64,000 bases of DNA from an uncultured Gaiellaceae bacterium (GTDB lineage Bacteria; Actinomycetota; Thermoleophilia; Gaiellales; Gaiellaceae): assembly GCA_963806955.1 (NCBI GenBank), contig CAWDZG010000002.1:528821-592820 (forward strand), given 5' to 3'. Made by a program: the position numbers and the translations under genes. Every line of letters begins with the position of its first letter. Within the stretch, counting starts at the first letter, position 1. The notes beneath the pieces were generated by a model. It was given only the letters and a program-made list of their open reading frames with translations, had not been told where the DNA came from and did no database searches. This document shows positions 5,620-56,415 of this stretch, piece after piece.

Positions 5620-5668
5620 CAGACTGTTACTTGGACGAGCGCGCGCCGATCGACTTGCTCCACGGGGC

Positions 5669-25408: not shown

Positions 25409-25428
25409 TTGCTCTGAGCAACTATCTC
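25402..25428. terminator. perfect 13-bp-arm palindrome spanning both stop codons of convergent genes (candidate bidirectional terminator)
   Basis: GAGATAGTTGCTC-T-GAGCAACTATCTC. The TAG of the SDR gene (25406-25408) and the TAG of lysR (complement of 25422-25424) lie inside the two arms. Confidence 0.5.
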
Positions 25429-40144: not shown

Positions 40145-42213
40145 CGGCGCCCGGCGCCGCGCGGGTCGGCGTCGACGTCGGCGGCACGTTCACCGACGTG
40201 ATCCTCCAGGGCGACGACGGGCGCGTGCTGGTGCGCAAGCTCCTCTCCACCCCTCCCCGCTACGACCGGGCGGTGGTCGAGGCCGTCGGCGCCCTGGCGG
40301 AGGCCGACGGCGGCACGGTCACCGAGGTCGTCCACGGCACCACGGTGGCGACGAACGCCGTGCTCGAGCGGCGCGGCAGCCCGACGGCGCTCGTGACGAC
40401 GAAGGGCTTCCGCGACGTGCTCGAGCTGCGGCGGCTGCGGATCCCGCACATGTACGACCTCTTCTGGCGCAAGCCGGCACCGCTCGTCGAGCGCCGCCTC
40501 CGCTTCGAGCTCGACGAGCGCGTGACCGCCGACGGCACCGTCCTGCGCCCGTTCGACGAGGCCGAGTGCCGCGCGCTCGCCGGCCGTCTGCGCGCGACCG
40601 GCGTCGAGTCGATCGCGGTCTGCTTCCTCCACTCGTACCTCCACCCCGGCCACGAAGAGCGCGCGGGCGAGATCCTCGCCGAGGAGCTGCCCGGCGCGAC
40701 GATCTCGCTCTCGAGCGCGATCCTGCGCGAGCAGCGCGAGTACGAGCGCTCCGCCACGACCGTCGTCAACGCGTACGTGCGGCCGCTGATGTCGTCGTAC
40801 GTCGACCGGATCCGCACCGGCCTCGACGAGCTCGGCCTCGACGGGCCGCTGCAGATCATGCAGTCGTCCGGCGGCGTGATGACCTCCGACGACACGAAGC
40901 TGAAGCCCGTCTTCGCGCTCGAGTCCGGCCCGGCCGCGGGAGTGGTCGCCGCCCGCGGCGTCGCCGAGCAGCTCGGGCTCGCAAACGTGATCGCGTTCGA
41001 CATGGGCGGCACGACCGCGAAGGCGTCGCTGATCGAGGACGGCGCGATCTCGCGCGGCCGCGAGTACGAGGTCGGCGGCTCGATGTCCGCGGGCAGCCGG
41101 CTGATCCGCGGTGCGGGCGAGCTGCTGCGGATCCCCACGATCGACATCGCCGAGGTCGGCGCCGGCGGCGGCAGCATCGCGTGGATCGACCCGGCCGGGG
41201 GGCTCCAGGTCGGCCCGCGCAGCGCGGGCGCCGATCCCGGGCCGGCCTGCTACGGACGCGGTGGGATCGAGCCGACGGTGACGGACGCCAATGTCGTGCT
41301 CGGCTTCATCCCCGAGGGCACCGTTGCGGACGGCCAGATCGAGATCGTGCGCGAGCTGGCGGAAGAGGCGGTCCGCCACGTCGCCGGGCCGCTCGGCCTG
41401 ACCATGCTGGAGGCCGCGAGCGGGATCCACCGGATCGCGAACGCGCGGATGGTGCGAGCGCTGCGCTCGGTCTCCTCCGAGAAGGGCCGCGATCCGCGCG
41501 AGTTCGCGCTGATCGCCTACGGCGGCTCCGGCCCGATCCACGCGGGCGGGCTCGCAGAGGACCTCGGCGTGCGCACGATTCTCGTCCCGGCGGTCGCCGG
41601 TCTCTTCAGCGCCGTCGGCCTCCTCTTCGCCAGGCCGGAGTTCCACGAGGTGCGCACCTGTCATCTCGACCTCGACGGAGGCGACCCGGACTCGGTCGCC
41701 GCGCTCCTCGCAGAGATGGAGGCACGGCTCGCACCTGCGCTCGCCGGCCGCGACGACGTCGAGTGGGCCCGCAGCGCCGACCTCCGCTACGGCGGCCAGA
41801 GCTGGGAGATCGAGGTCGAGCTGGCGCCCGGCCCGGTCGATCGCGCCGCTCTCACCGAGCTGCGCGAGCGCTTCGAGCAGGCGCACGAACGGCTCTACGG
41901 CGTGCGCGACCAGCCCGGCTCGCCGGTGGAGATCCGGGCCGTGCGGCTGGCGGCGCTCGGTGCGTCGGCGGCGTCCTCGTCGTTCCGCTTCGACGACGCG
42001 CGCGGCGAGGCCGGCTCGCAGATCAGACGGGTCGACATCGACGGCGACGAGCTCGATGCCCCGATCCGGCGTCGCCGCGACATCGGCGCGGCGCCCGAGC
42101 CCGGGCCGCTCCTCGTCGACGAGTACGACACGACCGTGATCGTCCGGCCCGGCTGGAGCGTCCGCCGCGACGAGGGCACCGGCACGCTGATCCTGGAGCG
42201 GGCCGATGCCTGA
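40141..42213 (+). CDS. hyuA: hydantoinase/oxoprolinase family, A (HyuA-type) subunit, copy 1
   Basis: RVGVDVGGTFTDV, FDMGGTTAK and AEVGAGGGSIAW are ASKHA-fold motifs of Hydantoinase_A. GTGA overlap upstream. Confidence 0.9.
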   Translation: MTAPGAARVGVDVGGTFTDVILQGDDGRVLVRKLLSTPPRYDRAVVEAVGALAEADGGTVTEVVHGTTVATNAVLERRGSPTALVTTKGFRDVLELRRLRIPHMYDLFWRKPAPLVERRLRFELDERVTADGTVLRPFDEAECRALAGRLRATGVESIAVCFLHSYLHPGHEERAGEILAEELPGATISLSSAILREQREYERSATTVVNAYVRPLMSSYVDRIRTGLDELGLDGPLQIMQSSGGVMTSDDTKLKPVFALESGPAAGVVAARGVAEQLGLANVIAFDMGGTTAKASLIEDGAISRGREYEVGGSMSAGSRLIRGAGELLRIPTIDIAEVGAGGGSIAWIDPAGGLQVGPRSAGADPGPACYGRGGIEPTVTDANVVLGFIPEGTVADGQIEIVRELAEEAVRHVAGPLGLTMLEAASGIHRIANARMVRALRSVSSEKGRDPREFALIAYGGSGPIHAGGLAEDLGVRTILVPAVAGLFSAVGLLFARPEFHEVRTCHLDLDGGDPDSVAALLAEMEARLAPALAGRDDVEWARSADLRYGGQSWEIEVELAPGPVDRAALTELRERFEQAHERLYGVRDQPGSPVEIRAVRLAALGASAASSSFRFDDARGEAGSQIRRVDIDGDELDAPIRRRRDIGAAPEPGPLLVDEYDTTVIVRPGWSVRRDEGTGTLILERADA

Positions 42214-43942
42214 GACGACCGCCCGGGTCGATCCCGTCACGCTCCAGATCGCCGGGAACGCGCTCGCCTCCGCGGCGGACGAGATGGCGACGACGATCTT
42301 CCGCACCGCGCACTCGAGCGTCGTCCGTGACGGGATGGACTTCTCCGCGAGCATCTGCGACGCGCTGGGCCGCACGGTCGCCCAGGCCGTGACCGTCCCC
42401 TTCCATCTCGGCTCGATCCCGGTCGCGATGGACGCGCTGCTCGCACGCTACGGCGGCCGGATGCAGCCGGGCGACGTCTTCCTGATGAACGACCCGTTCG
42501 ACGGCGGCATCCACCTGCAGGACCTGTTCGTCTTCAAGCCCGTCCACTTCGAGGGCGAGCTGATCGGCTTCACCTGCACGACCGCCCACCACGGCGACGT
42601 CGGCGGGCGCCTCCCCGGCTCGAGCGCGTGCGACAACACCGAGATCTTCCAGGAGGGGATCCGCCTGCCGTGGCTGCGGCTCTACGCGGCGGGCGAGCCC
42701 GTCGAGGACGTGTTCAAGATCGTCGAGGCGAACGTCCGGATCCCGCGGATGACGTTCGGCGACCTCGGCGCGCAGGTGGCGGCCTGCTCGGTCGCCGAGC
42801 GCGCCCTCGTCGGGCTGGCCGAGCGCCACGGCCGGGAGCAGCTCGCGCTGCTCTGCGACGCGCTGATCGACCACACCGAGCAGCTCGTCCGGCAGGAGAT
42901 CGCCACCTGGCCGGACGGGACTGCCTCGTTCACTGACTATCTCGGCTCCGACGGGATCGACGTCGTCGACGTGCCGATCACCGCGCACGTGACGATCGCG
43001 GGCGACGAGGTCACCGCCGACCTGACCGACTCGGCGCCGATGGTGCGCGGCTCGCTGAACAGCACGCGCTCCTTCGTGCAGGCCTGCGTCTACCAGGCCG
43101 TGCGCGCCGCGCTGACGGTGGAGGTGCCGAACACCTCGGGCGCGTTCCGGCCGATCCACGTGCTGACGAAGCCCGGCACGGTCGCCGAGGTGGTGATGCC
43201 CGGCGCGTCCTCGATGCGCGGCGTCACCGGCTTCCGCGTGCTCGACGCCGTCAACGGCGCGCTCGCGCAGCTGATCCCCGACCGGGTCGCCGCTGCGGGC
43301 GAGGGCGGCAACACGCTCGCGATCTTCGGCGCCGAGCGCCCCGAGGGGGGCCGTTTCGTCTTCTATGAGCTGGTCGTCGGCACGTGGGGCGCGACCCCGG
43401 AGGCCGACGGCAACGACGGCCTGACAAACCCCGCGAGCCTCGCGGCGAACGTCCCCGTCGAGGTCGCCGAGCAGGAGTATCCGATCCTGGTCGAGCGCTA
43501 CGGGCTCGTACCCGACTCGGGGGGCGCCGGCCTCCATCGCGGCGGGCTCGCGGTCGAGCGCGTCTGGCGCTGCCTGACGCCCCGCACCTCGCTGATCGTC
43601 CGCTCCGACCGGGCGAAGCACGCGCCCTACGGTCTGGCCGGCGGCGGGAAGGGTGCGACCTCGAGCAATCTGCTCGTGCATCCGGGCGGGAGCGAGGACG
43701 TGCTGCCGCCGATGTTCTCGACCGAGATCGGCATCGGCGATGTCTATGCGCACCGCACCGCGGGCGGCGGCGGCTGGGGCGATCCGCTCGAGCGCGACGT
43801 GGCCGCGGTCGCCCGCGACGTCGTCGACGAGAAGGTCAGCGTCGAGGCGGCGCTGGAGCTCTACGCCGTCGCGCTCGACGCGGACGGAGTTGTCGACCAC
43901 GAACACACGACGGCTCTGAGAGCCGAGAGGAGGAACGCGTGA
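42206..43942 (+). CDS. hyuB: hydantoinase B/oxoprolinase family, B (HyuB-type) subunit, copy 1
   Basis: 578 aa. DPVTLQIAGNAL...NDPFDGGIHLQD...TAHHGDVGG...GGGGWGDP is typical of Hydantoinase_B. Confidence 0.9.
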   Translation: MPETTARVDPVTLQIAGNALASAADEMATTIFRTAHSSVVRDGMDFSASICDALGRTVAQAVTVPFHLGSIPVAMDALLARYGGRMQPGDVFLMNDPFDGGIHLQDLFVFKPVHFEGELIGFTCTTAHHGDVGGRLPGSSACDNTEIFQEGIRLPWLRLYAAGEPVEDVFKIVEANVRIPRMTFGDLGAQVAACSVAERALVGLAERHGREQLALLCDALIDHTEQLVRQEIATWPDGTASFTDYLGSDGIDVVDVPITAHVTIAGDEVTADLTDSAPMVRGSLNSTRSFVQACVYQAVRAALTVEVPNTSGAFRPIHVLTKPGTVAEVVMPGASSMRGVTGFRVLDAVNGALAQLIPDRVAAAGEGGNTLAIFGAERPEGGRFVFYELVVGTWGATPEADGNDGLTNPASLAANVPVEVAEQEYPILVERYGLVPDSGGAGLHRGGLAVERVWRCLTPRTSLIVRSDRAKHAPYGLAGGGKGATSSNLLVHPGGSEDVLPPMFSTEIGIGDVYAHRTAGGGGWGDPLERDVAAVARDVVDEKVSVEAALELYAVALDADGVVDHEHTTALRAERRNA

Positions 43943-45130
43943 TCACGAAGGCCGACGCGGTCGTGATCGGAGGAGGGATCATCGGCGCGAGCACCGCCCA
44001 CTTCCTGACGGAGCTCGGCTTCGGCGAAGTCGCGCTCGTGGAGAAGTCGACGATCTGCGGCGGCTCGACGCAGTACTCCGCCGCGCACGTGCGCCAGCAC
44101 TATTCGAACGAGGTCGCGATCCGGCTCGCCGTGCGCGGCGCCGAGATGTTCGCGGACGCCGCGGAACGGCTCGGCGGCCCGGCGGGGTTCGTCCAGTGCG
44201 GCTACGCGGTGATCGCGCCGGCCGACCAGGAGCAGGCGATCCGCGACGTCGTCCCGGTACAGCAGTCGTTCGGGGTCCAGACCGAGATCCTGAGCCCGGA
44301 GGAGGTGCAGCACCGCTGGCCGGAGCTGGACGTGGAGGGGATCGCGCTCGGCTGCTTACGAGCGAACGTCCGGGTACGCCGACCCCGTCCTGACGACACA
44401 GTCGCTCGTCGGGTCGGCACAGGCGAAGGGGCTTCACGTCTACGAGGGCTGCACGGCGCTCGACATCACCGTCGCTGGAGGGCGGGTCGCGGCCGTCGTC
44501 ACGGGTGACGGGACGATCGCAACCGGGGTCGTCGTCAACGCGTGCGGGCCCTGGGGTGACAGGATCGGCCGGATGGTCGGGATCGACTATCCGCTCACGT
44601 TCAGCCGCGAGCACGAGGCGATCTTCGACGCGCCCGAGGGCTTCGGGGAGCTCCCGGTCATGTCCGACGCGGCGCAGCAGCTCTACTTCCGCCTTTACGG
44701 CGACGCAAAGGTGCTCGTCGGCCAGGGCTGGCCGAAGCAGAAGGAGCCGGCCGATCCGGAGGACTACGACGACGGCACGGACGCCGAGCACCTCGACTGG
44801 ATGGTGCCGAGGCTGGTGAACCGGCTGCCGTCGCTGCGGCCGACGCTCGGAGCCGAGAACTACGGCGGCACGTTCGTCACGGGCTACTCGGGCGTCTACG
44901 ACATCACCGAGGACTGGTACCCGATCGTCGGCGAGGAGGAGGTCGGCGGCTACTACTCGGCGTTCGGCGGGAGCGGCCACTGCTTCAAGCTCGGCCCGGC
45001 GCTGGGCGAGTCGCTCGCGCACGTGATCGCCGGGCACGAGCCGCCGATCGACATCTCGGGCCTCTCGGGCTCGCGCTTCGCCGAGGGAAAGACATTCGGC
45101 TCGGTCTGGGGGCCCGGGAACCGCGCGTGA
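43939..45130 (+). pseudogene. FAD-dependent oxidoreductase (DAO / SoxB-like), one frameshift near 44350
   Basis: ADAVVIGGGIIGASTAHFL in frame 43384..44508. YERTSGYADPVLTT...GFGGSGHCFKLGPALG in the 44573..45130 frame. Confidence 0.7.
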
Positions 45131-46222
45131 AGATCACGTCCGTCACCGCGACGCCGCTCGCAATCCCGCTCGAGCAGCCGTTCCACTGGCGCTCGGGCGT
45201 GCAGGAGCGCGCACACCTCGTCCTCTTCGCCGTCGAGACCGACGCGGGCGCGACGGGCTACGGCGAGTCGATCTGCGAGGACACGGCGGCGGTCGTCTCG
45301 TACGGGAACCTGATGGCGGCAGCGTTCGTCGGCCGCTCGCCGGGCGACGTCGAGGCGATCCTGGGCGAGCTCTGGCGCGACGGGCGCTGGCGCTTCTATC
45401 CGCACTGGTCGCAGCAGATCGCGAGCGGGATCGAGGTCGCGTGCTGGGATGCGCTCGGCAAGGCGCTCGGCGTGCCGGCGTCGACGTTCCTCGGCGGCCG
45501 CGTCCGGGACGAGGTCGACTTCATGGCCTTCCCGCAGGGCGACACGGCCGAGGAGCTCGCGCGGCATGCGGCCGAGCTTGCGGCCGCCGGCCACCGCGTC
45601 GTCTATCTCAAGGTCGGCCGGCGCCGGGCGCGACGACGAGGAGATCGTCGCGGCGGTGCGGGACGCGATCGGGCCCGAGCCGCTCCTGCGCGTCGACGCG
45701 AACGAGGCCTGGGACGTGCCGACCGCGATCGACGCCATCCGCCGGCTGGCCGAGTACGACCTCGACTGGGTCGAACAGCCGGTCGCGGCGGGGAACGTGA
45801 GCGGGCTCGCCCAGGTGCGGCGCGCGGTCTCGACGAGGATCGCCGCCGACCAGGCCGTCTACACGGCGCACGAGCTGCGCAACGTGCTCGAGAGCGAGGC
45901 GGCCGACGCGATCGTGCTCGGCAGCCACGAGGCCGGCGGGCTCTGGCGCTGGCGCCAGCTCGCCCACCTGGCCGAGGCGCACGGGATCCCGGTCAACCGC
46001 CACGCCTGCGTCGAGAGCTCGATCTCCACCTTCGCGGCGCTGCAGCTGACGGCCTGCGTGCCCAACCTGACGCTCGGCAACCAGGTGATGCACCAGCTGC
46101 TCGCCGGGCAGCTCGTGACCACGCCGCTCGATCTCGGCGGCGGCCGCGTGATGGTTCCCGACGGACCAGGGCTCGGCTTCGACCTCGACCACGACGCGGT
46201 CGAGAGGTACACGGTCCGGTGA
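45127..46222 (+). pseudogene. enolase-superfamily enzyme (mandelate racemase / muconate lactonizing family), one frameshift near 45620
   Basis: N-terminal capping domain (KITSVTATPLAIPLEQPF...) in frame 45127. Barrel domain with metal-ligand contexts RVDANEAWD, LDWVEQP and IAADQ in frame 45449..46222. Confidence 0.7.
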
Positions 46223-47871
46223 TGGATCCGATCACGTTCGAGGTGATCCGGAACGCGCTCGTCGCCGCGACCGACGAGATGGTGCTGGCGCTGAAGCGGA
46301 GCGCCTACTCGACGAACATCAAGACGCGCTCCGACTTCTCCTGCGCCTTCTTCGACGCCGAGCTGCGGGCGGTGGCCCAGGGCTTCACGCAGCCGGTCCA
46401 TCTCGGCTCGATGGTCGAGCAGGTGCCGCGGGCGGTGCGCGACTACGGCCCCGACGAGCTCGGGCCCGGCGACGTGCTGATCACGAACGACCCCTACCCG
46501 AGCGGCGTGCACCTGAACGACGTCTCGCTGATCTCGCCCGTCCACCACGAGGGCGAGCTGCTCGGCTACGTCGCGAACCTCGCCCACCACGTCGACGTCG
46601 GCGGCGGCGCGCCCGCCTCGATCGGCGCCTTCCGGGAGGTCTTCCAGGAGGGCGTGATCATCCCGCCCGTGAAGGTCGTCGAGGGCGGCCGGATCGTCGA
46701 GGACGTGTTCGCGCTGATCCTCGCCCAGATCCGCTCGAAGCACGAGACGGCAGGGGACTTCCGCGCCCAGATCGCGGCGAACACGACCGGGGTCCGGCGC
46801 CTCGGTGCGCTCGCCGACCGCCACGGCCGCGCAACGCTCGTGGCGGCGATGGCGGAGCTGCTCGACTACACCGAACGACGTACGCGATCTGCGATCGCAA
46901 ATCTGCCACACGGTGTTTACGACGCCGTGGGCACGGTCGACACCGACGGCTACACGGACGAGCCCGTCCGGCTGGCGGCGCGGATCGAGATCGGCCCCGA
47001 CGGCGTCGCGTTCGACCTCGCCGGCTCCGACCCGCAGCGGCGGGCACCGGTCAACTCGACGTACGCGCAGACGTTCTCCGCCTGCGCGTACGCGCTCAAG
47101 TGCCTGGTCGACGCCGACCTGCCCGTGAACGACGGCTTCTACCGGCTCGTGTCGCTCGAGGCGCCGCTCGGCAGCGTCACCAACTGCACGTGGCCGAGCC
47201 CGGTCGTGGGCGGCTGGGAGACGCAGACGCGGCTCGTCGACGTGATCTTCCGCGCGCTCCTGCCGGCCTTCCCCGACCGCCTGCCCGCCGGGACGAAGGC
47301 GATGATGTGCCACGCCGGCTTCGGCGGCGTCGACCCGGCGACGAACGCGTACTACTGCTTCCTCGAGACCTTCGGCGGCGGCTACGGCGCCCGGTCGGCG
47401 AGCGACGGCCCGGACGCCGTCCAGGCCCACGGGCAGAACACCGAGAACGCGCCGGTCGAGGAGACCGAGCTGAACTACCCGGTGCGCGTGACGCGCCTCT
47501 CGCTGGTCGACGACTCCGCAGGGCCGGGCCGATTCCGCGGCGGGCTCGGACTGCGGAAGGACTTCCGCTTCGACAGGCCGACCACGTTCACCGTCCTGGC
47601 CGACCGCACGAGTCACGGCCCCGCCGGCGCGTTCGGAGGCGGCGCAGGCGCGCCGGCGGAGTACGTCCTGATCCGCGACGGCGAGGAGCGGCGCCTGCCC
47701 GCGAAGGGGACGGTCGAGCTGCAGGCGGGCGACACGGTCAGCTACCGCACGTGCGGCGGCGGCGGCTACGGGCCGCCGGCGGAGCGCGACCGCGAGCTGG
47801 TCGCGCGCGACGTCCGCGAGGGCAAGGTCAGCCCCGAGCAGGCCCGGGAGGCGTACGCGTGGCAGGGATGA
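46222..47871 (+). CDS. hyuB: hydantoinase B/oxoprolinase family subunit, copy 2
   Basis: MDPITFEVIRNALVAATDEM...NDPYPSGVHLND...LAHHVDVGGG...CGGGGYGPP. An alternative GTG at 46219 gives a GTGA overlap. Confidence 0.9.
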   Translation: MDPITFEVIRNALVAATDEMVLALKRSAYSTNIKTRSDFSCAFFDAELRAVAQGFTQPVHLGSMVEQVPRAVRDYGPDELGPGDVLITNDPYPSGVHLNDVSLISPVHHEGELLGYVANLAHHVDVGGGAPASIGAFREVFQEGVIIPPVKVVEGGRIVEDVFALILAQIRSKHETAGDFRAQIAANTTGVRRLGALADRHGRATLVAAMAELLDYTERRTRSAIANLPHGVYDAVGTVDTDGYTDEPVRLAARIEIGPDGVAFDLAGSDPQRRAPVNSTYAQTFSACAYALKCLVDADLPVNDGFYRLVSLEAPLGSVTNCTWPSPVVGGWETQTRLVDVIFRALLPAFPDRLPAGTKAMMCHAGFGGVDPATNAYYCFLETFGGGYGARSASDGPDAVQAHGQNTENAPVEETELNYPVRVTRLSLVDDSAGPGRFRGGLGLRKDFRFDRPTTFTVLADRTSHGPAGAFGGGAGAPAEYVLIRDGEERRLPAKGTVELQAGDTVSYRTCGGGGYGPPAERDRELVARDVREGKVSPEQAREAYAWQG

Positions 47872-49574
47872 CCGTCGACCCGATCACGTTCGAGGTGCTC
47901 CGGAACGCGCTCGTCGCCGCGACCGACGAGATGGTGCTGGCGCTGAAGCGAAGCGCCTACTCCACGAACATCAAGACGCGCTCGGACTTCTCCTGCGCCT
48001 TCTTCGACGCCGAGCTGCGCCCCGTCGCCCAGGGCTTCACCCAGCCCGTCCACCTCGGCTCGATGGTCGAGCAGGTGCCGAAGGCTGTCCGGACGTACGG
48101 CCCCGAGCGGCTCGGCCCCGGCGACGTGATCGTCACCAACGACCCGCACCCGAGCGGCGTGCACCTGAACGACGTCAGCCTGATCTCACCGGTGCACGAC
48201 GGCGACCTCCTGATCGGCTACGTCGCGAACCTCGCCCACCACGTCGACGTCGGCGGCGGCGCACCCGCGTCGATCGGCGCGTTCCGGGAGGTCTTCCAGG
48301 AGGGCGTGATCATCCCGCCGATCAGGCTCGTCGAGGGTGGCAGGATCGTGCAGGACGTCTTCCGGCTGATCCTGGCGCAGATCCGCTCGAAGCACGAGAC
48401 GGGCGGCGACTTCCGGGCGCAGATCGCCGCGAACGCGACCGGCGTCCGCCGGGTGCAGGCGCTCGTCGCGCGCCACGGGCGCGAGACGGTGCTCGCCGCG
48501 ATGGACGAGCTGCTCGAGTACACCGAGCGGCGAACGCGCTCCGAGCTCGCGAAGCTGCCGCACGGCGTCTGGTCGGCCGAGGGCTCCGTCGACAACGACG
48601 GCTACACCGACGAGCCGGTACGGCTGCGCGTGCGGATCGAGATCGGGCCGGAGGGCGTGATCTTCAGCACCGCCGGCTCCGACCTGCAGCGGCGCGCGCC
48701 CGTCAACTCGACGTGGGCGATGACGTTCTCCGCGTGCGCGTACGCGTTCAAGTGCCTGATCGACCCCGACCTGCCCGTGAACGACGGCTTCTACCGGCTC
48801 GTCCACCTCGACGCGCCCCCCGGCACCGTCACGAACGCCAGCTGGCCGGCCCCTGTCGTCGGCGGCTGGGAGACGCAGACGCGCCTCGTCGACGTGATGT
48901 TCAAGGCGCTGCTGCCGGCCTTCCCCGAGCGGCTGCCCGCGGGGACGAAGGCGATGATGTGCCAGGCCGGCTTCGGCTCGCTCGACGTCGAAGCCGGGAC
49001 GTACACCTGCTTCTACGACACGTTCGCGGGCGGGTACGGCGGCCGCTTCTCGAGCGACGGGCCGGATGCCGTCCAGGCCCACGGCCAGAACACCGAGAAC
49101 GCACCCGTCGAGGAGACGGAGCTGAACTACCCGGTGCGGATCGACCGGCTCTCGCTGGTGGAGGACTCGGACGGGCCCGGCCGCTTCCGCGGCGGGCTCG
49201 GCCTGCGCAAGGACTACCGCTTCGACCTGCACACCACCTTCACGGTGCTCGCCGACCGCGACCGAAGCGGCCCGTGGGGCGTCCTCGGCGGCAGCGACGG
49301 CCGGGTCGCGGAGTACCGGCACATCCGCGACGGCGTCGAGACGCGGCTCGGCTCGAAGTGCACGATCGAGCTCGTGCCCGGCGACGTGATCAGCGTCCGC
49401 ACGTGCGGCGGCGGCGGCTACGGGCCGGCCGCCGAGCGGGAGCCCGAGCGCGTCCTCCGCGACGTGCGCGAGGGCAAGGTCAGCGCCGAGCGCGCCCGGG
49501 AGCACTACCGGGTCGCGATCGACGGGGCCTGCATCGACGAGACCGCGACGGCCGAGCTCCGGGGGAGCGCGTGA
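47868..49574 (+). CDS. hyuB: hydantoinase B/oxoprolinase family subunit, copy 3 (tandem paralog of copy 2)
   Basis: ATGA overlap with copy 2. Long runs are identical to copy 2 (LVAATDEMVLALKRSAYSTNIKTRSDFSCAFFDAELR; YVANLAHHVDVGGGAPASIGAFREVFQEGVIIPP). Confidence 0.9.
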   Translation: MTVDPITFEVLRNALVAATDEMVLALKRSAYSTNIKTRSDFSCAFFDAELRPVAQGFTQPVHLGSMVEQVPKAVRTYGPERLGPGDVIVTNDPHPSGVHLNDVSLISPVHDGDLLIGYVANLAHHVDVGGGAPASIGAFREVFQEGVIIPPIRLVEGGRIVQDVFRLILAQIRSKHETGGDFRAQIAANATGVRRVQALVARHGRETVLAAMDELLEYTERRTRSELAKLPHGVWSAEGSVDNDGYTDEPVRLRVRIEIGPEGVIFSTAGSDLQRRAPVNSTWAMTFSACAYAFKCLIDPDLPVNDGFYRLVHLDAPPGTVTNASWPAPVVGGWETQTRLVDVMFKALLPAFPERLPAGTKAMMCQAGFGSLDVEAGTYTCFYDTFAGGYGGRFSSDGPDAVQAHGQNTENAPVEETELNYPVRIDRLSLVEDSDGPGRFRGGLGLRKDYRFDLHTTFTVLADRDRSGPWGVLGGSDGRVAEYRHIRDGVETRLGSKCTIELVPGDVISVRTCGGGGYGPAAEREPERVLRDVREGKVSAERAREHYRVAIDGACIDETATAELRGSA

Positions 49575-49599
49575 AGCTTGTGACTGATAGACACAAGCT
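49575..49599. repeat. hairpin repeat copy 1: AGCTTGTG-ACTGATAGA-CACAAGCT
   Basis: 8-bp perfect stem and 9-nt loop. The central 23 nt are identical to copy 2, which lies 60 bp downstream. Confidence 0.8.
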
Positions 49600-49634
49600 C
49601 CCTTTCGAGCACGCAACCATGCGGGAAGGAGGGG

Positions 49635-49659
49635 CGCTTGTGACTGATAGACACAAGCG
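49635..49659. repeat. hairpin repeat copy 2: CGCTTGTG-ACTGATAGA-CACAAGCG
   Basis: Same 23-nt core. The outermost pair is C-G instead of A-T, so pairing is preserved. GGAGG at 49628-49632 lies 7 nt upstream of the GTG at 49640 in the left arm. Confidence 0.8.
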
Positions 49660-49668
49660 GTCGTCGGC

Positions 49669-51734
49669 GTGAGCGTCCGCGTCGCGATCGACATCGGCGG
49701 CACGTTCACGGACGCGACGCTGATCGACGAGGAGAGCGGCAGCGTCGCGATCGCGAAGGTGCTGACGACACCCGCCGACCCGTCCGAGGGGTTCATGCAG
49801 GCGGTCGACCGCGCCCTCGCCGAAGGCGGCGTCCAGCCCGGCCAGGTCAGCTTCGTCGTCCACGCGACCACCGTCGCGACGAACGCGATCATCGAGGGCA
49901 AGGTCGCGCGCGGCGGCTTCGTCACCACCGAGGGCTTCCGCGACCTGCTCGAGATCGCGCGCCAGGTCCGCCCCACCCTCTACGACACGCTGTTCGAGAA
50001 GCCGCCGCCGCTCGTGCCGCGCGACCGCGCGACCGAGGTGCGGGAGCGGCTCGGGCCGAAGGGCGAGGTGCTCACGCCGCTCGACGACGACTCGGTTCGC
50101 GCCGCGGCTGCGGTGCTGCGCCGCGAGGAGGTCGAGTCGGTCGCCGTCTGCCTGCTCCACTCCTACGTCAACCCGGCGCACGAGCTCCGGATCGGCGAGA
50201 TCCTGGCCGAGGAGCTCCCGGGCGTGCCGATCTCGCTCTCGGCCGAGGTCGCGCCGGAGTTCCGCGAGTACCTGCGCGCATCGACGACGGTGATCAACGC
50301 CGCGATCCGGCCGGTCGTCGGGCGCTACCTGGAGGGGATCGAGCGGCGCCTCGCGGAGCGCCGGGATCGACGCCAAGCTGCTCGTGATGCAGTCGAGCGG
50401 CGGCGTCTTCAGCTCCGAGGCGGCGGCGCGCAAGCCGGTCTTCATGGTCGAGTCAGGGCCGGCCGCGGGCGTGATCGCCTCGGCCTACCTGGGCGAGACG
50501 CTCGGCCGGCCGGACATCCTCTCCTTCGACATGGGCGGCACGACCGCCAAGGTCGGGCTGATCCAGGGCGGGCAGCCGTCGGTGACCAAGGACTACACCG
50601 TCGGCGGCCATGCCGGCGCCGGGATCGGCGGCATGTCGCTCTCGGGCTACCCGGTGCGGACGCCGGTGGTCGACCTGGTCGAGATCGGCGCCGGCGGCGG
50701 CTCGATCGCCTGGATCGACTCCGGCGGGCTGCTGCGCGTCGGGCCACAGAGCGCGGGCGCCGACCCGGGGCCCGTCTGTTACCGCCGCGGCGGCACCGAG
50801 CCGACCGTCACCGACGCGAACGTCGTGCTCGGCCGGCTCAACCCGGCGTACTTCCTCGGCGGCGAGATGGGCCTCGACGTCGAGGGGGCACGGGCCGCGA
50901 TCGAGGAGCGGCTCGCGACGCCGCTCGGCCTCTCCGTCACCGAGGCGGCGAACGGGGTCGTCGAGATCGCGAACGCGGCGATGGTGAACGCCCTCCACCT
51001 GATCTCCGTCCAGCGCGGCTACGACCCGCGCGACTTCGTCCTGGTCGGCTTCGGCGGCGCCGGGCCCGTGCACGCGAACGCGCTCGCGCGCGACGCCGAG
51101 ATGCCGACGCTCGTGATCCCGCGCAGCCCCGGCATCTTCTCCGCGACCGGCCTGCTCACGACCGACCTGAAGCGCGACGCGGCGATCACGATCATGCGCC
51201 GGCTCGACGAGCTCGACCCCGCCGAGGCGGAGCGGACGTTCGCCGAGCTCGAGGCCGCCGGCCGCGCCGAGCTCGAGCAGGAGGGCCTCTCCGGGGCGGC
51301 GGTCGAGTTCGTCCGCCAGATCGACCTCCGCTACGTCGGCCAGAGCTACGAGCTGACGATCCCGGCCGGCGACGCCCTCGTCGAGCGCTTCCACGTCGAG
51401 CACGACCGGGTCTACGGATTCGCGGCACCGGCCGAGCCGGTCGAGGCGGTGAGCCTCCGCCTGACGAGCATCGGCCGGATCGTGAAGCCGCCGCCGCGGC
51501 CGCTCGAGCGCGGCGGCACAGCCGAGCCGAAGGAGCGGCGGCCCGTCTACTTCGCGGAGGCCGGCGACTACGTCGACTGCCCGATCTACGACCGCTACAC
51601 GCTGCCGGCGGGCGCGGCCCTCTCCGGGCCGGCGGTCGTGGAGGAGTTCGACTCGACCACCGTCGTCCACCCGGGCTTCACGCGTCTCGGTCGACGACCT
51701 CGGCAACCTCGTGATCGAAAGGGAGCAGGGATGA
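49669..51734 (+). pseudogene. hyuA: hydantoinase/oxoprolinase A (HyuA-type) subunit, copy 2, two frameshifts (near 50365 and 51678)
   Basis: VAIDIGGTFTDA in frame 49669. LVMQSSGGV...FDMGGTTAK...EIGAGGGSIAW in frame 50384. The tail SVDDLGNLVIEREQG ends at TGA 51732-51734 in the third frame, overlapping the next ATG. Confidence 0.75.
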
Positions 51735-53631
51735 GCTACGGCATCGTCGTCTCGAAGGACGTCATGGTCGAGATGCGGGACGGGATCCGCCTCGCGACCG
51801 ACGTCTACCGGCCCGCCCGGGACGGCGAGCTCGTCCCGGGGCGCTATCCGACGGTCGTCTGCATGACCCCGTACGACAAGACAGAGCGCCGCTACACCGA
51901 GATCGCCGACTTCTTCGTGCCGCGCGGCTACGCCGTCGTCCTCCAGGACCTGCGCGACCGGCACCGCTCGGAGGGGACGGACGAGTACTTCCACAGCGCG
52001 ACGCCGCACACGGGCGAGGACGGCTACGACACGATCGAGTGGATCGCCGCGCAGCCGTGGTCGAACGGCCGCACCGGCACGGTCGGCAGCTCGTACGCCG
52101 GGATCACCCAGGTCCGCACGGCGCTCGAGAGCCCGCCCCACCTGACCGCGATCTGGCCCGACGTCACGCCGACGAACATCTTCGAGAACCAGACGCGCGA
52201 GGGCGGCGCGATGCAGCTGCACATGTTCTGGGCGCTCTACATCCACGCCGCCGACGCGCAGGGCGTGAAGGACGACTGGCAGAAGCAGCGCGAGGTCTTC
52301 GAGGACCTGAAGAACCTGCGGCAGCTCTTCTGGCGCTCGCCGATCCTCGGCGACGACCTCGCTCTGCGCCACGTGCCGACGCTCGCGCAGACGCTCGACG
52401 ACTACTGCACGCGCGGCGCCTACGACGAGTTCTGGGCCACGAAGGAGAACGACTTCACCCGTTTCTGGGCCGAGCACGCCGACATCCCGGCGACGATGAC
52501 GACCGGCTGGTACGACCCGTTCCCGCACGCCGACAGCGAGTACTTCGCCGCGATGACGGCGAAGAACGAGTCGCCCCAGCGGCTGATCATCGGGCCCTGG
52601 AGCCACGTCGGCATGCGCGGCGACGCGAGCTGGACACTCGACGTCGACTTCGGCCCGACCTCGGTCTGGGGCGTGCAGCGCTACTTCGAGGAGCAGCTCG
52701 CGTTCTTCGAGCGCTGGCTCCCGGACGAGGCGACGGGCCAGCCGGCCGACGAGGCGCCGGTGCAGATCTTCGTGATGGGCGGCGGCAGCGGCCGCAGGAC
52801 GGAGCTCGGCAAGCTCGACCACGGCGGCGGCTGGCGCGACGAGCAGGAGTGGCCGCTCGCGCGCGCCGTCCCGACGACGCTGCATCTCCACTCCGACGGC
52901 GGCCTGCGCGCCGAGGCGCCCGCCGGCCGGCGCGGAGCCGCGCACGTTCACCTACGACCCCGACGACCCGGTGCCGACGATCGGTGGGCTCTTCTGCGCG
53001 GTCGGCGAGCTCCCGTCCGCCGACGGGGAGATCGAGCCGATGTGGGCCCGCCTCCTCAACCCGGCGCTCCTGCTCCGGAACATCATGACCCCGGGGCCCG
53101 CCGACCAGAAGGAGTCGGCCGAGTACTTCACCGCCCGCGAGCCGTACCAGCGGCTCTCCGAGCGGCAGGACGTGCTCGTCTACCAGACCGAGCCGCTCCC
53201 CGAGCCCGTCGAGGTGACGGGCCGGGTCGCCGTCGAGCTCTGGATCGCGTCGAGCGCCGTCGACACCGACTTCACGGCGAAGCTGATCGACGTCTACCCG
53301 CCGAACGAGGACTACCCCGAGGGCTACGACCTCCTCCTCAACGACACGATCGATCCGGACGCGCTACCGCGAGGGCTTCGACCGCGAGGTGCTGCTGGTG
53401 CCCGGCACGCCCTACCGGGTGACGATGCTGCTGCCGCCGACCTCGAACCTCTTCGCCGCGGGCCACCGGATCCGGATCGACGTCTCCTCGTCGAACTTCC
53501 CCCGGCTCGAGCGCAACCCGAACACCGGCGAGCCGATCGGCCGCCACACCCATCACGTCGTCGCGGAGCAGACGGTCTTCGCCGACGCCGAGCGCCCCTC
53601 GCACGTCGTCCTGCCCGTGATCCCGGCCTAG
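51731..53631 (+). pseudogene. CocE/NonD family (S15 X-Pro dipeptidyl-peptidase-like) alpha/beta hydrolase, two frameshifts (near 52935 and 53350)
   Basis: VEMRDGIRLATDVYRP, GYAVVLQDLRD and the nucleophile elbow GTVGSSYAG. The C-terminal beta-sandwich part (LLVPGTPYRVTMLLPPTSNLFAAGHRIRIDVSSSNFPR) is in a third frame. Confidence 0.7.
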
Positions 53632-53869
53632 ATGTCGTTCCTCGTCCCCTGTCCCAACTGCGGCGACCGCGACGTGAACGAGTTCGGCTACCGCGGCGAG
53701 GTGACGACGCGGCCGGTCGGAGCGGCCGACGCTCGCGGAGCTCTCGCGCTACGTCTACTCGCGCCGGAACGTCGCGGGCGTGCAGCGGGAGTGGTGGTGC
53801 CACCGGCACGGCTGCGGTCAGTGGTTCGTCGCCGAGCGCGACACGCAGACGAACGAGTTCGCCGGATGA
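53632..53869 (+). pseudogene. soxD: sarcosine oxidase delta subunit-like, one frameshift near 53712
   Basis: MSFLVPCPNCGDRDVNEFGYRGEVTTRP, then after a shift ERPTLAELSRYVYSRRNVAGVQREWWCHRHGCGQWFVAERDTQTNEF, giving a Cys3His zinc pattern. The TGA overlaps the soxA ATG (ATGA). Confidence 0.65.
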
Positions 53870-56415
53870 GGCTGGAGCGGCAACCGGGCGAGCTGCTCGA
53901 CCGCTCGCGCACGGTCTCCTTCCGCTTCGGCTCGCAGGAGATCCAGGCGTTCGCGGGCGACACGTTCGGCTCGGCCCTCTACGCGTCCGGACGCCGCGTC
54001 TTCTCGCGCAGCTTCAAGTACCACCGGCCGCGCGGGCTCCTCTGCTGCTCGGGCCACTGCGCCAACTGCATGATGACCGTCGACGGCGTCCCCAACGTCC
54101 GCGTTTGCGCCGAGCCCGTGCGCGAGGGCGCGGTCGTCGCCGGCCAGAACGCGCTCGGCTCAATCGACCGCGACCTCCTCTCCGTCGTCGACCGCGCCGG
54201 CGGCCCGTTCACGCCGGTCGGCTTCTACTACCGGACGATGATCCGGCCGCGACGCGCCTGGCCGCTGTACGAGAAGGCGCTGCGCTCGGTCGCCGGGCTC
54301 GGCCGCGTGCCGCCTGACGGCGGGCACCGCCGCTACGACCGGGAGCACCGCCGCGCGCGCGTGCTCGTGATCGGCGGCGGTCGCAGCGGCCGTGAGGCGG
54401 CGCTGACCGCCGCGGCGGAAGGCCCGGGCGTCGTGCTCGTGGACGAAAACCTGAGGCCGCTCGAGCTGCCCGGCGTCGAGGTGGTCGCGCCCGGACGGGC
54501 GCTCGCGATCTACGAGGGTGGCCTCGTGCCCGTCGACGCGGGCACGCTGCTGCTCCGCTACCGGGCCGAGCGGATCGTCGTCGCGACCGGCACCGTCGAG
54601 CAGCCGCTCGTCTTCCCCGGCAACGACCTCGTCGGCGTGCTCCTGCCGGGCGCGGTGCGTCGGCTCGTCGGCGACTGGTCGGTGAAGCCCGGCGAGCGGG
54701 CGGTCGTGATCGGCGGCGAGGGTGCCGTCGAGTCGCTCGTCCTCGCCGGCGTCGAGATCGCGGAGCTCGCCGACCCCGCCTCGGTCCGTTCGATCTCGGC
54801 GCGCGGCAGCAAGGGGCGCCTGCGCGAGGTCGAGCTCGACGGGAAGACGGTCGAGTGCGACCTCGCCGTCGTCTCGGGCGGCCGCCAGCCCGCCTACTCC
54901 CTGCTCGCCCAGGCCGGCGCCCGCGTCGAGTACGACGCGGTGCGCCGGGTCTTCGTCCCCCGCGACCTCCCGGCCGGGATCGACGCCGTCGGCTCGATCA
55001 CCGGCGGCGGCTCGACCGCGGCGCCGAGCTACCGCGGCAAGGACGCGAAGGGACGCTGCTTCGTCTGCGTCTGCGAGGACGTGACCGAGAAGGACGTCGA
55101 GCGCGCGATCCGCGAGGGCTTCGACTCGATCGAGCTCTCGAAGCGGTACACGACCGTGACGATGGGCCCCTGCCAGGGCAAGTACTGCCAGCTCCCGTCG
55201 ATCCGCCTGCACGCCGCCAAGACGGGCGTCGACGAGGCCGCGATCGGGACGACGACGGCGCGGCCGCCGTGGGCGCCCGTCGAGCTCGGCCTGCTCGCGG
55301 GCCGCCACCACGATCCGGTCCGCCGCAGCTCGCTGCACGAGCGGCACGAGCAGGCGGGCGCGAACTTCGTCTGGGCCGGAGCGTGGCAGCGGCCCCACTC
55401 CTACGGCGCCCCCGAGGAGGAGGTCGCCGCAGTGCACGCAGACCTGGGCGTGATCGACGTCTCCACGCTCGGCAAGCTGCTCGTCGAGGGCCCCGGCGCG
55501 GCGCCCTTCCTGGAGCGGCTCTACCCGAACCGCTTCGCCGACCTCGCCGAGGGCCGCGTCCGCTACACGGTGCTCGGCACCGACGGCGGCCGGATCATGG
55601 ACGACGGCACCGTCGCCCGGCTCGGCGCTGACCTCTTCTACGTGACGACGACCTCGACCGGCGCCGACGCCGTGCACGAGTGGTTCGAGTGGTGGAACGC
55701 CGTCTGGGGCTACGACGTCGACGTCGTCAACGTCACCGGCGCGCTCGCCGCGCTCAACCTCGCCGGGCCGCGGGCGCGCGAGGCGCTCGCCGGGCTGACG
55801 GGCGCGGACGTCTCCTCAGAGGCCTTCCGCTACCTCGACGCGAAGCAGATCGAGGTCGCGGGCGTGCGGGCGCTTGCGCTGCGGATCGGCTTCGTCGGCG
55901 AGCTCGGCTACGAGCTCCACTTCGCGAGCCCGGCCGGCGAGCACGTGTGGGACACGCTCGTCGCGGCGGGCGCGCGCCCCTTCGGGCTCGAGCCGCAGCG
56001 CGTGCTCCGGCTGGAGAAGCAGCACGTGATCGTCGGCCAGGACACCGACACGGAGTCGAACCTGCTCGGCGCCGGCATGTCCTGGCTGCCGAAGCTCGAC
56101 AAGGACGACTTCGTCGGCAAGTGGGCGCTCGAGCACATGGGCGGGCGCGACCTCCCCGAGCGCCTCGTCGGCTTCCGGATGGACGTGCTCCCGCTCGAGG
56201 GCGCGCAGGTCGTGCGCGGCGGCCGCCCGGTCGGCCGCGTGACGAGCGCGCGCGCCAGCGCTGCCGCGGGCGGCGTGATCGGCCTCGCCTGGGTGCCGCC
56301 CGACCTCGCGGTCGAGGACGCCGAGCTGCACGTCCAGGTGGACGGGGCGCCGCAGCCCGGACGCGTGCGGCTGAAGCCGTTCTACGACCCGGCGGGCGAG
56401 AGGATGCGCGCATGA
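53866..56415 (+). CDS. soxA: sarcosine oxidase alpha subunit-like (2Fe-2S-like N-terminus, FAD/NAD domain, C-terminal GcvT folate-binding domain)
   Basis: FKYHRPRGLLCCSGHCANCMMTVDG; VLVIGGGRSGREAAL; C-terminal aminomethyltransferase-like region (GVIDVSTLGKLLVEGP...GELGYELH...). No frameshift over 2.5 kb. Confidence 0.85.
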   Translation: MRLERQPGELLDRSRTVSFRFGSQEIQAFAGDTFGSALYASGRRVFSRSFKYHRPRGLLCCSGHCANCMMTVDGVPNVRVCAEPVREGAVVAGQNALGSIDRDLLSVVDRAGGPFTPVGFYYRTMIRPRRAWPLYEKALRSVAGLGRVPPDGGHRRYDREHRRARVLVIGGGRSGREAALTAAAEGPGVVLVDENLRPLELPGVEVVAPGRALAIYEGGLVPVDAGTLLLRYRAERIVVATGTVEQPLVFPGNDLVGVLLPGAVRRLVGDWSVKPGERAVVIGGEGAVESLVLAGVEIAELADPASVRSISARGSKGRLREVELDGKTVECDLAVVSGGRQPAYSLLAQAGARVEYDAVRRVFVPRDLPAGIDAVGSITGGGSTAAPSYRGKDAKGRCFVCVCEDVTEKDVERAIREGFDSIELSKRYTTVTMGPCQGKYCQLPSIRLHAAKTGVDEAAIGTTTARPPWAPVELGLLAGRHHDPVRRSSLHERHEQAGANFVWAGAWQRPHSYGAPEEEVAAVHADLGVIDVSTLGKLLVEGPGAAPFLERLYPNRFADLAEGRVRYTVLGTDGGRIMDDGTVARLGADLFYVTTTSTGADAVHEWFEWWNAVWGYDVDVVNVTGALAALNLAGPRAREALAGLTGADVSSEAFRYLDAKQIEVAGVRALALRIGFVGELGYELHFASPAGEHVWDTLVAAGARPFGLEPQRVLRLEKQHVIVGQDTDTESNLLGAGMSWLPKLDKDDFVGKWALEHMGGRDLPERLVGFRMDVLPLEGAQVVRGGRPVGRVTSARASAAAGGVIGLAWVPPDLAVEDAELHVQVDGAPQPGRVRLKPFYDPAGERMRA

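Follow-up and report, generated by a model that had tools for sequence, protein, structure and literature searches.

A probable copy of a dispersed twin-palindrome repeat in the stop/start junction between hyuB3 and hyuA2 of a Gaiellaceae operon

The junction between hyuB3 and hyuA2 raises the question of whether its paired hairpins, GGAGG and short open frame form a device of the hyu operon or came to it from elsewhere. A preliminary description of the locus offered three readings: a translational coupling or attenuation device, a pair of operators, and a small REP/MITE-like insertion. Comparison with orthologous junctions and other genomes favors the last, as the twin hairpins are probably one copy of a dispersed ~83-nt 'twin-palindrome' repeat that landed in an overlapping stop/start junction.

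Overall organization of the junction

In the window, the whole 64-kb stretch of DNA analysed here, the hyuB2/hyuB3 and hyuA2/peptidase junctions are both ATGA overlaps. The region between hyuB3 and hyuA2 is arranged as follows:

47868–49574, plus strand: hyuB3 (Hydantoinase_B); its ATG start overlaps the hyuB2 stop as ATGA, and its stop is TGA 49572–49574
49569–49574, plus strand: left GCGTGA direct repeat, including the hyuB3 TGA and GTG 49571, the equivalent of the ancestral overlapping start
49571–49672, plus strand: 33-codon bridging frame, VKLVTDRHKLPFEHATMREGGALVTDRHKRSSA followed by a stop; overlapping the hyuB3 stop with its GTG and the hyuA2 start with its TGA
49575–49672, plus strand: 98 extra nt relative to empty orthologous junctions, i.e. 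the element and the second GCGTGA
49576–49598, plus strand: core 1, GCTTGTGACTGATAGACACAAGC, with A at position 8 (exact match)
49599–49635, no strand assigned: 37-nt linker, one end pyrimidine-rich and the other purine-rich
49609–49624, minus strand: central linker motif CCGCATGGTTGCGTGC (family consensus CCGCAYGGTTGCGCGG), conserved across the family
49628–49632, plus strand: GGAGG, within the purine-rich linker end
49636–49658, plus strand: core 2, the core 1 sequence 60 nt downstream (exact match)
49667–49672, plus strand: right GCGTGA copy, including hyuA2 GTG 49669 and TGA 49670–49672
49669 to ~51740, plus strand: hyuA2, start confirmed, end approximate

Much of what had been described here from the letters alone stands. 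The 94-nt gap between the hyuB3 stop and the hyuA2 start holds two exact 23-nt cores 60 bp apart, the GGAGG is located 7 nt before GTG 49640, and hyuA2 itself lacks a good Shine-Dalgarno site. The element is A+T-rich, with a G+C content of 0.58–0.63 versus ~0.72 nearby. The core occurs twice in the window and nowhere else there; the count is still two with three mismatches allowed, and zero in 100 shuffles.

The hyuA2 start at GTG 49669 is confirmed by Pfam Hydant_A_N, which aligns from residue 4, and by the same start codon in orthologs, whereas its end is only approximate because two +1 indels (near 50359 and 51689) break the gene in the window. In the 99.5%-identical contig L135 hyuA2 is intact (687 aa), and the frameshifts of the window are one of the points to be set against the dispersed-repeat reading. 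The possibility that the element is an assembly artefact had been raised; it is not one, since a separate ENA contig (99.5% identical) has the identical element.

Core structure and predicted folds

The hairpins are real, but the 7-bp stem and 9-nt loop originally drawn for them are better replaced by a 10-bp stem with one A·A mismatch and a GAT triloop. A perfect palindrome is found in the commoner variant of the family, which has T at position 8 (GCTTGTGTCTGATAGACACAAGC). Self-complementarity of each core also allows the two copies to pair with each other; the predicted RNA fold of the twin at minimum energy (−63 kcal/mol, z −4.6) is a single long hairpin, with GGAGG paired to CTCCC. Over 30 elements, however, covariation for three-hairpin or long-hairpin folds was no better than in shuffles, and the covariance check that had been proposed gave no support beyond the palindromes themselves. 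Rfam, searched at a permissive threshold over 49300–49900, returned noise only and no credible match, and a promoter/terminator scan found neither signal; the signature of an intrinsic terminator is absent, as the stems are rich in A+T and lead into no run of T.

Across the family the cores fall into several sequence subtypes, all with perfect 10-bp arms around a 3-nt centre. Their variant arms contain no G-U intermediates, which fits symmetry at the DNA level better than a constraint at the RNA level. The variant arms of a phosphomannomutase site, ATAGTTGCT/AGCAACTAT, also turn up elsewhere in the window, at an unrelated position (25405–25425), and are thus dispersed subtypes; the strong 'covariation' at that site can therefore not be taken simply for in-place compensatory evolution. 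A covariance-model match at 27842–27923 was set aside as a chance palindrome within a response-regulator gene. The window element itself scores 88 bits on the minus strand versus 71 bits on the plus strand with the element model.

Filled and empty hyu junctions

Four orthologous hyu operons, with HyuB3 orthologs of 84–90% identity, lack the element, and in them hyuB3 and hyuA2 overlap by 4 nt (ATGA or GTGA). Compared with the window, these empty junctions read GTGA or ATGA followed directly by GCGTCC, and the window thus has an insertion of 98 nt, with GCGTGA repeated on its flanks. Two other lineages, L133 and L134, have a homologous, diverged twin element at the same junction, where its in-frame reading adds a 32-aa tail to HyuB3 that ends at ATGA or GTGA. 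Filled and empty junctions both occur among lineages that are 85–91% identical, and each of the three filled versions has an open frame that spans the element and stops on the hyuA2 NTGA.

A dispersed family of twin palindromes

Species-representative genomes were scanned with an exact 19-mer, giving 30 loci, 28 of them in eight Gaiellaceae or Actinomycetes genome bins (up to nine loci per bin), and a metagenome scan for the core added a further 93. The core or its perfectly palindromic variant occurs at 121 loci besides the window, in Gaiellaceae genomes and soil metagenomes. The 122 sites hold 219 cores, 148 of which match one of the two 23-mers exactly, and clustering of the flanks places them in at least 36 unrelated genomic contexts. 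This dispersal, together with the four orthologous hyu operons that lack the element, bears out the suggestion of a small REP/MITE-like insertion; by the criterion that the preliminary description had itself set, dispersal of the core refutes a hyu-specific device. The family is confined to Gaiellaceae, which are soil Actinomycetota, and plasmid, phage and viral-contig collections gave no core match. A literature search for the core sequence found no paper, and the repeats are apparently a family undescribed so far, new but of a known kind.

In the ~83-nt unit, two palindromic cores of 23 bp enclose a 37-nt linker whose central motif is conserved, and pairs of cores 58–62 nt apart predominate. 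The linker motif stands at a fixed offset at many unrelated sites and was never met outside elements, while the consensus of the core flanks only lengthens the palindrome (GnGA...TCnC) and contains no GTAG. A minimal CRISPR-like array, of two 23-nt repeats and one 37-nt spacer, is barely credible: the lengths lie within the CRISPR range, but no element has more than two cores, the 'spacers' are alike in a conserved motif at their centre and inherited at orthologous sites, copies lie inside genes, and there is no Rfam match. Rfam and tRNA scans of the segments between wider-spaced cores (105–392 bp) yielded nothing. The idea of a DNA-uptake sequence was rejected, as half-sites never occur alone.

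Elements are found in both orientations relative to transcription; they separate convergent genes or unrelated genes of operons, and some lie in frame within genes. Single cores are in frame within intact genes for an E2 acyltransferase, a phosphomannomutase, a ferrochelatase, a glycerate kinase and an AMP-ligase, where they encode a recurrent peptide, LV[ST][DI][RS]HK, in variable surface loops. Such a distribution makes it very improbable that the two cores are operators for the neighbouring GntR-type regulator, forming a control point inside the operon. The 23-bp dyad symmetry and the two sites 60 bp apart would suit operators; however, the element is dispersed over unrelated genes and also inside coding regions, orthologous hyu clusters lack it, and no promoter-like site lies between or near the copies. 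The contexts are not the promoters of one regulon but a range of unrelated ones, with gene ends and interiors among them.

Since one linker end is pyrimidine-rich and the other purine-rich, either strand has a GGAG-like run ahead of a core, and the run before core 2 is present on both element strands, also in convergent contexts. The family as a whole has the GGAGG, A+T richness and hairpins as intrinsic properties, and they are no adaptation to the hyu operon. An attenuator evolved in hyu, in which hairpin 2 would mask GTG 49640 and the GGAGG and thereby tune hyuA2 translation, could draw on the placing of the GGAGG before that GTG, on the 10-codon mini-ORF that terminates on the hyuA2 start and on the base pairing of both GGAGG and GTG 49640 in the predicted fold. 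It is nonetheless improbable, given the 36 or more unrelated sites, the intrinsic purine run and the four orthologous operons, which work with a plain 4-nt overlap. Distances from core 2 to the downstream start across sites, read by eye, split 5:3:2 by residue modulo 3 and so give no signal of frame preference.

The dispersal, the empty sites, the frame geometry and the conservation of the cores are observed directly; the mobility of the element and its mechanism are inferred. Some observations count against a dispersed repeat of this sort. No transposase-like or other mobilising gene was obvious by eye near the cores (ORFs at 13 loci with atypical flanks, up to 8 kb), and the only small gene bracketed by cores has sub-threshold, weak helix-turn-helix matches (HTH_29 and HTH_17). 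Moreover, there is no constant target-site duplication: flanking repeats, of no fixed length, are GCGTGA in the window and CGTGAGG or GTGAGCT at other sites, and some sites have none.

Between orthologous sites the cores are ~95% identical, the linkers 69% and the flanking DNA 83–88%. That the cores are better conserved than flanking coding DNA also speaks against the dispersed-repeat reading in its selfish form, as neutral selfish DNA explains this no better than would a function for the host or a protein that binds the sequence specifically. The palindromes might be host-functional throughout the genome, as protein-binding sites (for nucleoid-associated, recombinase-like or regulatory candidates) or as mRNA-stabilising or processing hairpins at gene ends; at hyu, the cores would then set the relative stability or expression of hyuB3 versus hyuA2. 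Besides the near-invariant cores between drifting linkers, this gains from the conserved linker motif, from the shared 10-bp arms and 3-nt centre of the several subtypes, from the stop codons of neighbouring genes, which lie within 0–7 nt of cores, and from the long duplex predicted for the twin. We consider it unlikely, because the element is both present and absent among close lineages at the hyu junction, copies lie within the coding sequence of unrelated enzymes and in both orientations, and neither covariation beyond the palindromes nor a terminator-like or promoter-like signal was found.

Bridging frame and translational coupling

The spacing of 60 nt equals 20 codons and puts cores 1 and 2 in a common reading frame. 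In the window orientation, the A-variant core has stops in two frames, and the third is open and reads LVTDRHK. With this spacing and GTGA overlaps 98 nt apart (2 mod 3), a frame that stays open for 33 codons links GTG 49571 to TGA 49670–49672, as had been described. Doubt had been cast on a conserved peptide, and a protein-database search with the bridging peptide indeed found no candidate. Insertion into the ancestral overlap, combined with the single stop-free frame of the element, explains the retained open frame; of the coupling or attenuation reading, the frame joining two GTGA overlaps holds, but no evolved attenuator masking the mini-ORF start is needed.

A like bridge, from GTGA to GTGA or ATGA, spans the cluster 6 junction in two lineages (98 nt in L005 and 101 nt in L029). 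A bridging frame that begins at the upstream stop is no family rule, being absent from an aroE-like site and a cluster 32 site, and this is a further point against the dispersed-repeat reading. Other co-directional sites retain NTGA at the downstream start.

In the lineage of the window, 98 nt would have been inserted exactly into the ancestral NTGA overlap, and since GCGTGA was left on both sides, hyuB3 and hyuA2 retained intact ends. Ribosomes ending hyuB3 could restart at GTG 49571, read the 33 codons through both palindromes, which would melt, stop at TGA 49670–49672 and restart at the hyuA2 GTG. Such a relay would make the insertion tolerable and leave coupling unbroken and, judged from sequence, it would be the most likely consequence of the insertion. 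As the open frame ends on the hyuA2 NTGA in every filled version, stop/restart coupling between hyuB3 and hyuA2 is plausibly kept despite the element, by analogy with mycobacterial MIRUs.

Comparison with known repeat systems

Like the Gaiellaceae element, MIRUs (mycobacterial interspersed repetitive units) are short actinobacterial repeats between operon genes, with tens of copies per genome. They are tandem variable-number direct repeats of ~46–100 bp and are not built of perfect palindromes. The ends of the MIRU internal frame, according to Supply et al. in 1997, reportedly overlap the flanking stop and start, with coupling kept. The window element is similarly placed between co-directional genes at the downstream start codon, as judged against the empty junctions, and an overlapping internal frame of this kind occurs in the window, at cluster 6 in its two lineages and as a fusion in L133/L134, but not at the aroE-like and cluster 32 sites. 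MIRUs are described as entering at the start codon of a gene, and their internal ORF as being coupled at −4 nt (PMC12548453). In described features the Gaiellaceae element departs from MIRUs: it forms no tandem arrays, its linker being unique sequence and no repeat unit, it consists of two 23-bp palindromes around a linker, and it has copies at convergent gene ends and inside genes.

REP, BIME and REPIN elements resemble it as short, conserved, dispersed palindromes at gene ends and within operons, with several sequence subfamilies coexisting in one genome; BIME units, too, are often paired, around a linker with its own conserved motif. The Gaiellaceae cores differ in lacking a GTAG-type 5' tetranucleotide, in the same rather than inverted orientation of the twins (judged by the loop), in not being strictly extragenic, as they lie in frame inside enzyme genes, and in their low copy number, probably tens per genome. 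As for the RAYT genes (HUH tyrosine transposases) that REP repeats flank, no RAYT-like gene was identified by eye in flanks of up to 8 kb from incomplete genomes. To our knowledge, a REP/BIME/REPIN-like family would be the first in Thermoleophilia.

RPEs (Rickettsia palindromic elements) are palindromic repeats found in frame in unrelated intact protein genes, with one preferred frame and a recurrent peptide (PMC10969869), and the in-frame Gaiellaceae cores with their recurrent heptapeptide recall them. RPEs, however, are 100–150 bp long and Rickettsia-specific, whereas the in-gene Gaiellaceae unit is a single 23-bp palindrome and the intergenic form is twin. With MITEs such as Chunjie of Geobacter the element shares its character as a small, non-autonomous-looking insertion that does not break the operon, its presence/absence polymorphism among relatives and a short flanking direct repeat. 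It departs from them in that no parent insertion sequence was found (in incomplete genomes) and no target-site duplication is constant, and in that its 'terminal repeats' are perfect palindromes, nearly invariant while the interior drifts.

Implications

Recognition of the repeat removes a tempting false lead, since the hairpins, the GGAGG and the mini-ORF are no hyu-specific regulator. The junction provides a clear non-mycobacterial case, with filled and empty sites, of a small repeat in a stop/start overlap with an open frame linking the genes, and it is relevant to the tolerance of compact operons for insertions. Sites of this kind will mislead gene callers into wrong annotations, e.g. of 599-aa 'HyuB' proteins. 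The family occurs in abundant, mostly uncultured soil Actinomycetota, where it could serve as a strain-typing marker; it also supplies enzymes with peptide insertions, and the strong conservation of its cores hints at a putative DNA-binding or mobilising protein.

A broader and tentative possibility is that Gaiellaceae possess an undescribed system of perfect 23–27-bp palindromes of several subtypes, each with 10-bp arms about a 3-nt centre and often arranged as twins ~60 nt apart. A sequence-specific protein would hold them near-invariant, and they would tend to enter at stop/start overlaps and the surface loops of proteins, in a translation-preserving frame. In-place inversion of the palindrome centre and arms changing only by paired Watson-Crick substitutions would be its signatures. 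If true, Actinomycetota would possess a partnership of REP-RAYT-like or MIRU-like type, with a mechanism of its own.

Structure of the element between hyuB3 and hyuA2

The gap between hyuB3 and hyuA2 is 94 nt long and holds a small element, in which two identical cores flank a linker of 37 nt:

47868-49574, plus strand: hyuB3, with its TGA stop at 49572-74
49576-49598, plus strand: core 1, GCTTGTGACTGATAGACACAAGC
49609-49624, minus strand: window copy of the conserved linker motif
49628-32: GGAGG, 7 nt 5' of the GTG at 49640
49636-49658, plus strand: core 2, an exact 23-mer match to core 1
49669, plus strand: GTG start of hyuA2

The cores are the only matches to GCTTGTGACTGATAGACACAAGC in the window, even at three mismatches, and shuffles gave 0 in 100. 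The A+T-richness noted in the preliminary description is seen as a drop in local G+C to about 0.6. The hairpin described there stands, with its stem redrawn: each core is a 10-bp inverted repeat with one A·A mismatch and a GAT centre. Self-complementarity within each core also lets the two copies pair with each other. At a predicted -63 kcal/mol (z = -4.6), the optimal RNA fold is a single long hairpin that pairs GGAGG with CTCCC. Scored with a model of the element, the window copy reaches 88 bits when read on the minus strand, against 71 bits for the plus strand.

Filled and empty hyu junctions

HyuB3 orthologs are numerous at 82-90% identity. In four orthologous operons (L124-L127) the element is absent, and the two genes share 4 nt, as ATGA or GTGA. 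Relative to these empty junctions, the window thus carries 98 extra nt with GCGTGA at each side, the left repeat supplying the hyuB3 stop and the right one the hyuA2 start. At two further orthologous loci, L133 (90% identity) and L134 (85%), HyuB is called as a protein of 599 aa, with 32 extra residues. This tail is a homologous twin element whose cores are variants (GTGTTG-GAA/TTC-CAACAC) at a spacing of 60 nt. The element is read in the HyuB frame, which closes with a TGA overlapping the ATG or GTG of hyuA2:

L133, 1805-1943: element-derived HyuB tail
L134, 2089-2227: element-derived HyuB tail

These 599-aa 'hydantoinase B' calls in public annotation are therefore a trap. The distribution of filled and empty junctions in the identity matrix leaves two histories: the element was gained more than once at a hotspot, or it was lost precisely. 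An assembly artefact, raised as a concern earlier, is excluded for the element, because a separate contig (L135) that is 99.5% identical to the window has an identical copy together with an intact 687-aa hyuA2.

In the window itself, comparison with orthologs shows two +1 indels in hyuA2 (near 50359 and 51689), which divide the gene (49669-51740) among three frames, and the MR_MLE and DAO genes upstream (45127-46222 and 43384-45130) appear split too. Given the intact gene in L135, the indels are probably assembly errors and not signs of pseudogenes. The wider region (39673-56415) contains three hyuB and two hyuA paralogs, the DAO oxidoreductase, the MR_MLE racemase, an S15 peptidase and a sarcosine-oxidase-alpha/GCV_T-like protein; from its Pfam matches, it looks like a catabolic island of the N-methylhydantoin or creatinine-to-sarcosine type.

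A dispersed family of twin palindromes

An exact scan for the inner 19-mer of the core, with one genome per species, returned 30 loci. All but two lie in eight Gaiellaceae or Actinomycetes genome bins, with at most nine loci per bin; the remaining two, from unrelated phyla, are at chance level, as about 4 such matches are expected in 596 Gb. These two are L016 1305-1327 (Clostridium aromativorans) and L027 5535-5557 (Promineifilum). The flanking G/C is missing on the 5' side in the former and on both sides in the latter, and neither has a partner core. A metagenome scan allowing A or T at position 8 added 93 contigs, every one from soil-type samples.

The census, which is approximate, comprises 219 cores at 122 sites in 36 unrelated genomic contexts, as counted by clustering of flanking sequence. 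The commonest form is the perfect palindrome GCTTGTGTCTGATAGACACAAGC (93 copies), followed by the variant of the window with A at position 8 (55 copies). No half-sites were found on their own. The prevailing arrangement is two cores in the same orientation, 58-62 nt apart. In linker-oriented elements, a conserved motif, CCGCAYGGTTGCGCGG, follows core 1 by 10-11 nt at many unrelated sites; it never occurs outside elements.

The core is thus dispersed and not unique to hyu clusters, as the search of genomes and metagenomes makes plain. Among the readings first put forward, a small dispersed insertion is borne out by the 36 contexts together with the empty orthologous hyu junctions, and an internal operator pair is not upheld. 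The supposed Shine-Dalgarno site is a real GGAGG, but it is not special to hyuA2. One end of the linker is pyrimidine-rich and the other purine-rich, so that a GGAG-like run lies 5' of a core on either strand throughout the family, including at sites between convergent genes.

Palindrome subtypes and probable DNA-level symmetry

Between orthologous sites, identity is about 95% in the cores, 69% in the linkers and 83-88% in flanking DNA. Among 30 elements, no covariation was detected beyond the palindromes themselves. The cores fall into several subtypes:

Subtype: CTTGTGTCT-NNN-AGACACAAG
Subtype: CTTGTGTTG-NNN-CAACACAAG
Subtype: ATAGTTGCT-NNN-AGCAACTAT
Subtype: CAAGTAACA-NNN-TGTTACTTG

At a site within a phosphomannomutase gene, orthologs vary: some carry the consensus core, some carry nothing, and some have a different palindrome, also perfect and unchanged in length and frame (…GTGTTG-GAA-CAACAC…, …GTGGCT-CAG-AGCCAC… or ATAGTTGCT-GAC-AGCAACTAT). 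By formal count, 7 of 10 pairs are changed on both sides there, with no G-U intermediates.

The variant palindromes are dispersed subtypes, because their arms recur elsewhere. The ATAGTTGCT arms are found again at window 25405-25425, within a perfect palindrome with a 12-bp stem, GAGATAGTTGCT-CTG-AGCAACTATCTC (25402-25428). It lies at the 3' end of a gene on the minus strand, and one arm contains the TAG stop of that gene. Locus L130 has the same arms at its phosphomannomutase site (597-617). This palindrome represents a second subtype of the family, likewise dispersed. The A+T-rich perfect palindrome CCAAGTAACA-GAC-TGTTACTTGG at window 5612-5634 holds the TAA stop of a plus-strand ORF ending at 5619; its arms recur at L042 1520-1542 and L021 1388-1410 with the centre flipped (GAC versus GTC). 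Another locus, L025 (about 2406-2491), has a twin of the CTTAGTTGCT-GAC-AGCAACTAAG subtype with a spacing of about 61 nt, and the twin architecture is therefore common to several subtypes.

The core centre, its A/T asymmetry included, flips in place between orthologs while linker orientation is unchanged, and nearly always agrees in both cores of an element. Taken together, core conservation, the lack of extra covariation, the subtypes and the centre flips argue for symmetry at the DNA level. The likely causes are events mediated by hairpins or cruciforms, a dimeric binding protein, or both; an RNA fold is not indicated.

Genomic contexts and in-gene copies

Elements occur between co-directional genes, between convergent genes, where 0-7 nt separate the flanking stop codons from the cores, now and then between divergent genes, and in frame inside intact genes. 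Linkers are found in both orientations relative to transcription. In-gene copies are single cores, which leave the genes intact. Besides phosphomannomutase, they occur in genes for ferrochelatase, glycerate kinase, an acyl-CoA-dehydrogenase-like protein, an AMP-dependent ligase and an E2 acyltransferase, where each of the two linkers beside the subunit-binding domain has a core. The host enzymes are otherwise complete, and when they are aligned to solved structures, the peptide that the core encodes (LVSDRHK or LVSIRHK) falls in variable surface loops.

At L064 (10097-10271), the two in-frame cores fall in the flexible linkers flanking the peripheral-subunit-binding domain of the 2-oxoacid dehydrogenase E2 protein, and this pair (flank cluster 0, a group sharing flanking sequence) is kept across 14 metagenome contigs. 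L036 (2515-2892, minus strand) has a small ORF (MRFSIAREDARIHALVVG...), about 108 aa long, whose helix-turn-helix matches are weak. It lies between two single cores 390 bp apart, and its C-terminal codons cross one of them (...ERLVSDRHKPP*). It is also present in 10 more loci of flank cluster 1, e.g. L022 5367-5807, and is possibly a core-associated protein.

Proposed translational relay

In the window orientation, two frames of the A-variant core are closed by stops (TGA in one, TGA and TAG in the other), and the third is open (CTT GTG ACT GAT AGA CAC AAG). Both cores lie in the open frame because their spacing is 60 nt, and the frame from GTG 49571 closes at TGA 49670-72, after 33 codons, because the GTGA motifs are 98 nt apart. 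The bridging peptide matched none of the called proteins in a protein-database search. Ancestrally, hyuB3 termination and hyuA2 restart would have taken place at a single GTGA; at present, they would proceed in two steps, with ribosomes translating through the palindromes and presumably melting them.

An open frame across the element, ending on NTGA (a stop overlapping the downstream start), is found in all three filled versions of the junction. The coupling or attenuation device initially suggested finds support only in a weak sense: coupling has probably been retained. The cluster 6 junction has the same bridge in two lineages (98 and 101 nt). Not every site of the family is built this way: a bridge starting at the upstream stop is absent at an aroE-like site and at the cluster 32 site. 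The spacing between core 2 and the next start codon, read by eye and taken modulo 3, divides 5:3:2 among the three residues. Where NTGA recurs at the start of a downstream gene, the best reading is that an ancestral overlap has left it behind, and for the hyu junction this is proven.

Relation to known repeats

A recent review (PMC12548453) describes MIRUs as inserting at start codons and carrying an internal ORF with coupling at -4 nt, and the hyu element matches that description. At this junction it would act as a MIRU does, but no tandem arrays were seen. REP/BIME elements are similar in architecture and conservation, although the present family has no GTAG, its copies are not strictly extragenic and no RAYT was found in the flanks, which extend 8 kb at most. 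RPEs share the in-frame copies but differ in unit size and host. The element thus misses at least one defining feature each of MIRU, REP and RPE. Rfam holds no family matching it, a literature search for the core sequence found no paper containing it, and collections of plasmids, phages and viral contigs gave no match.

The element is a small dispersed palindromic repeat, and in that respect an ordinary kind of thing. The family is apparently new to description and comes from an understudied lineage, and its hyu junction provides a clean filled/empty demonstration for a palindromic repeat.
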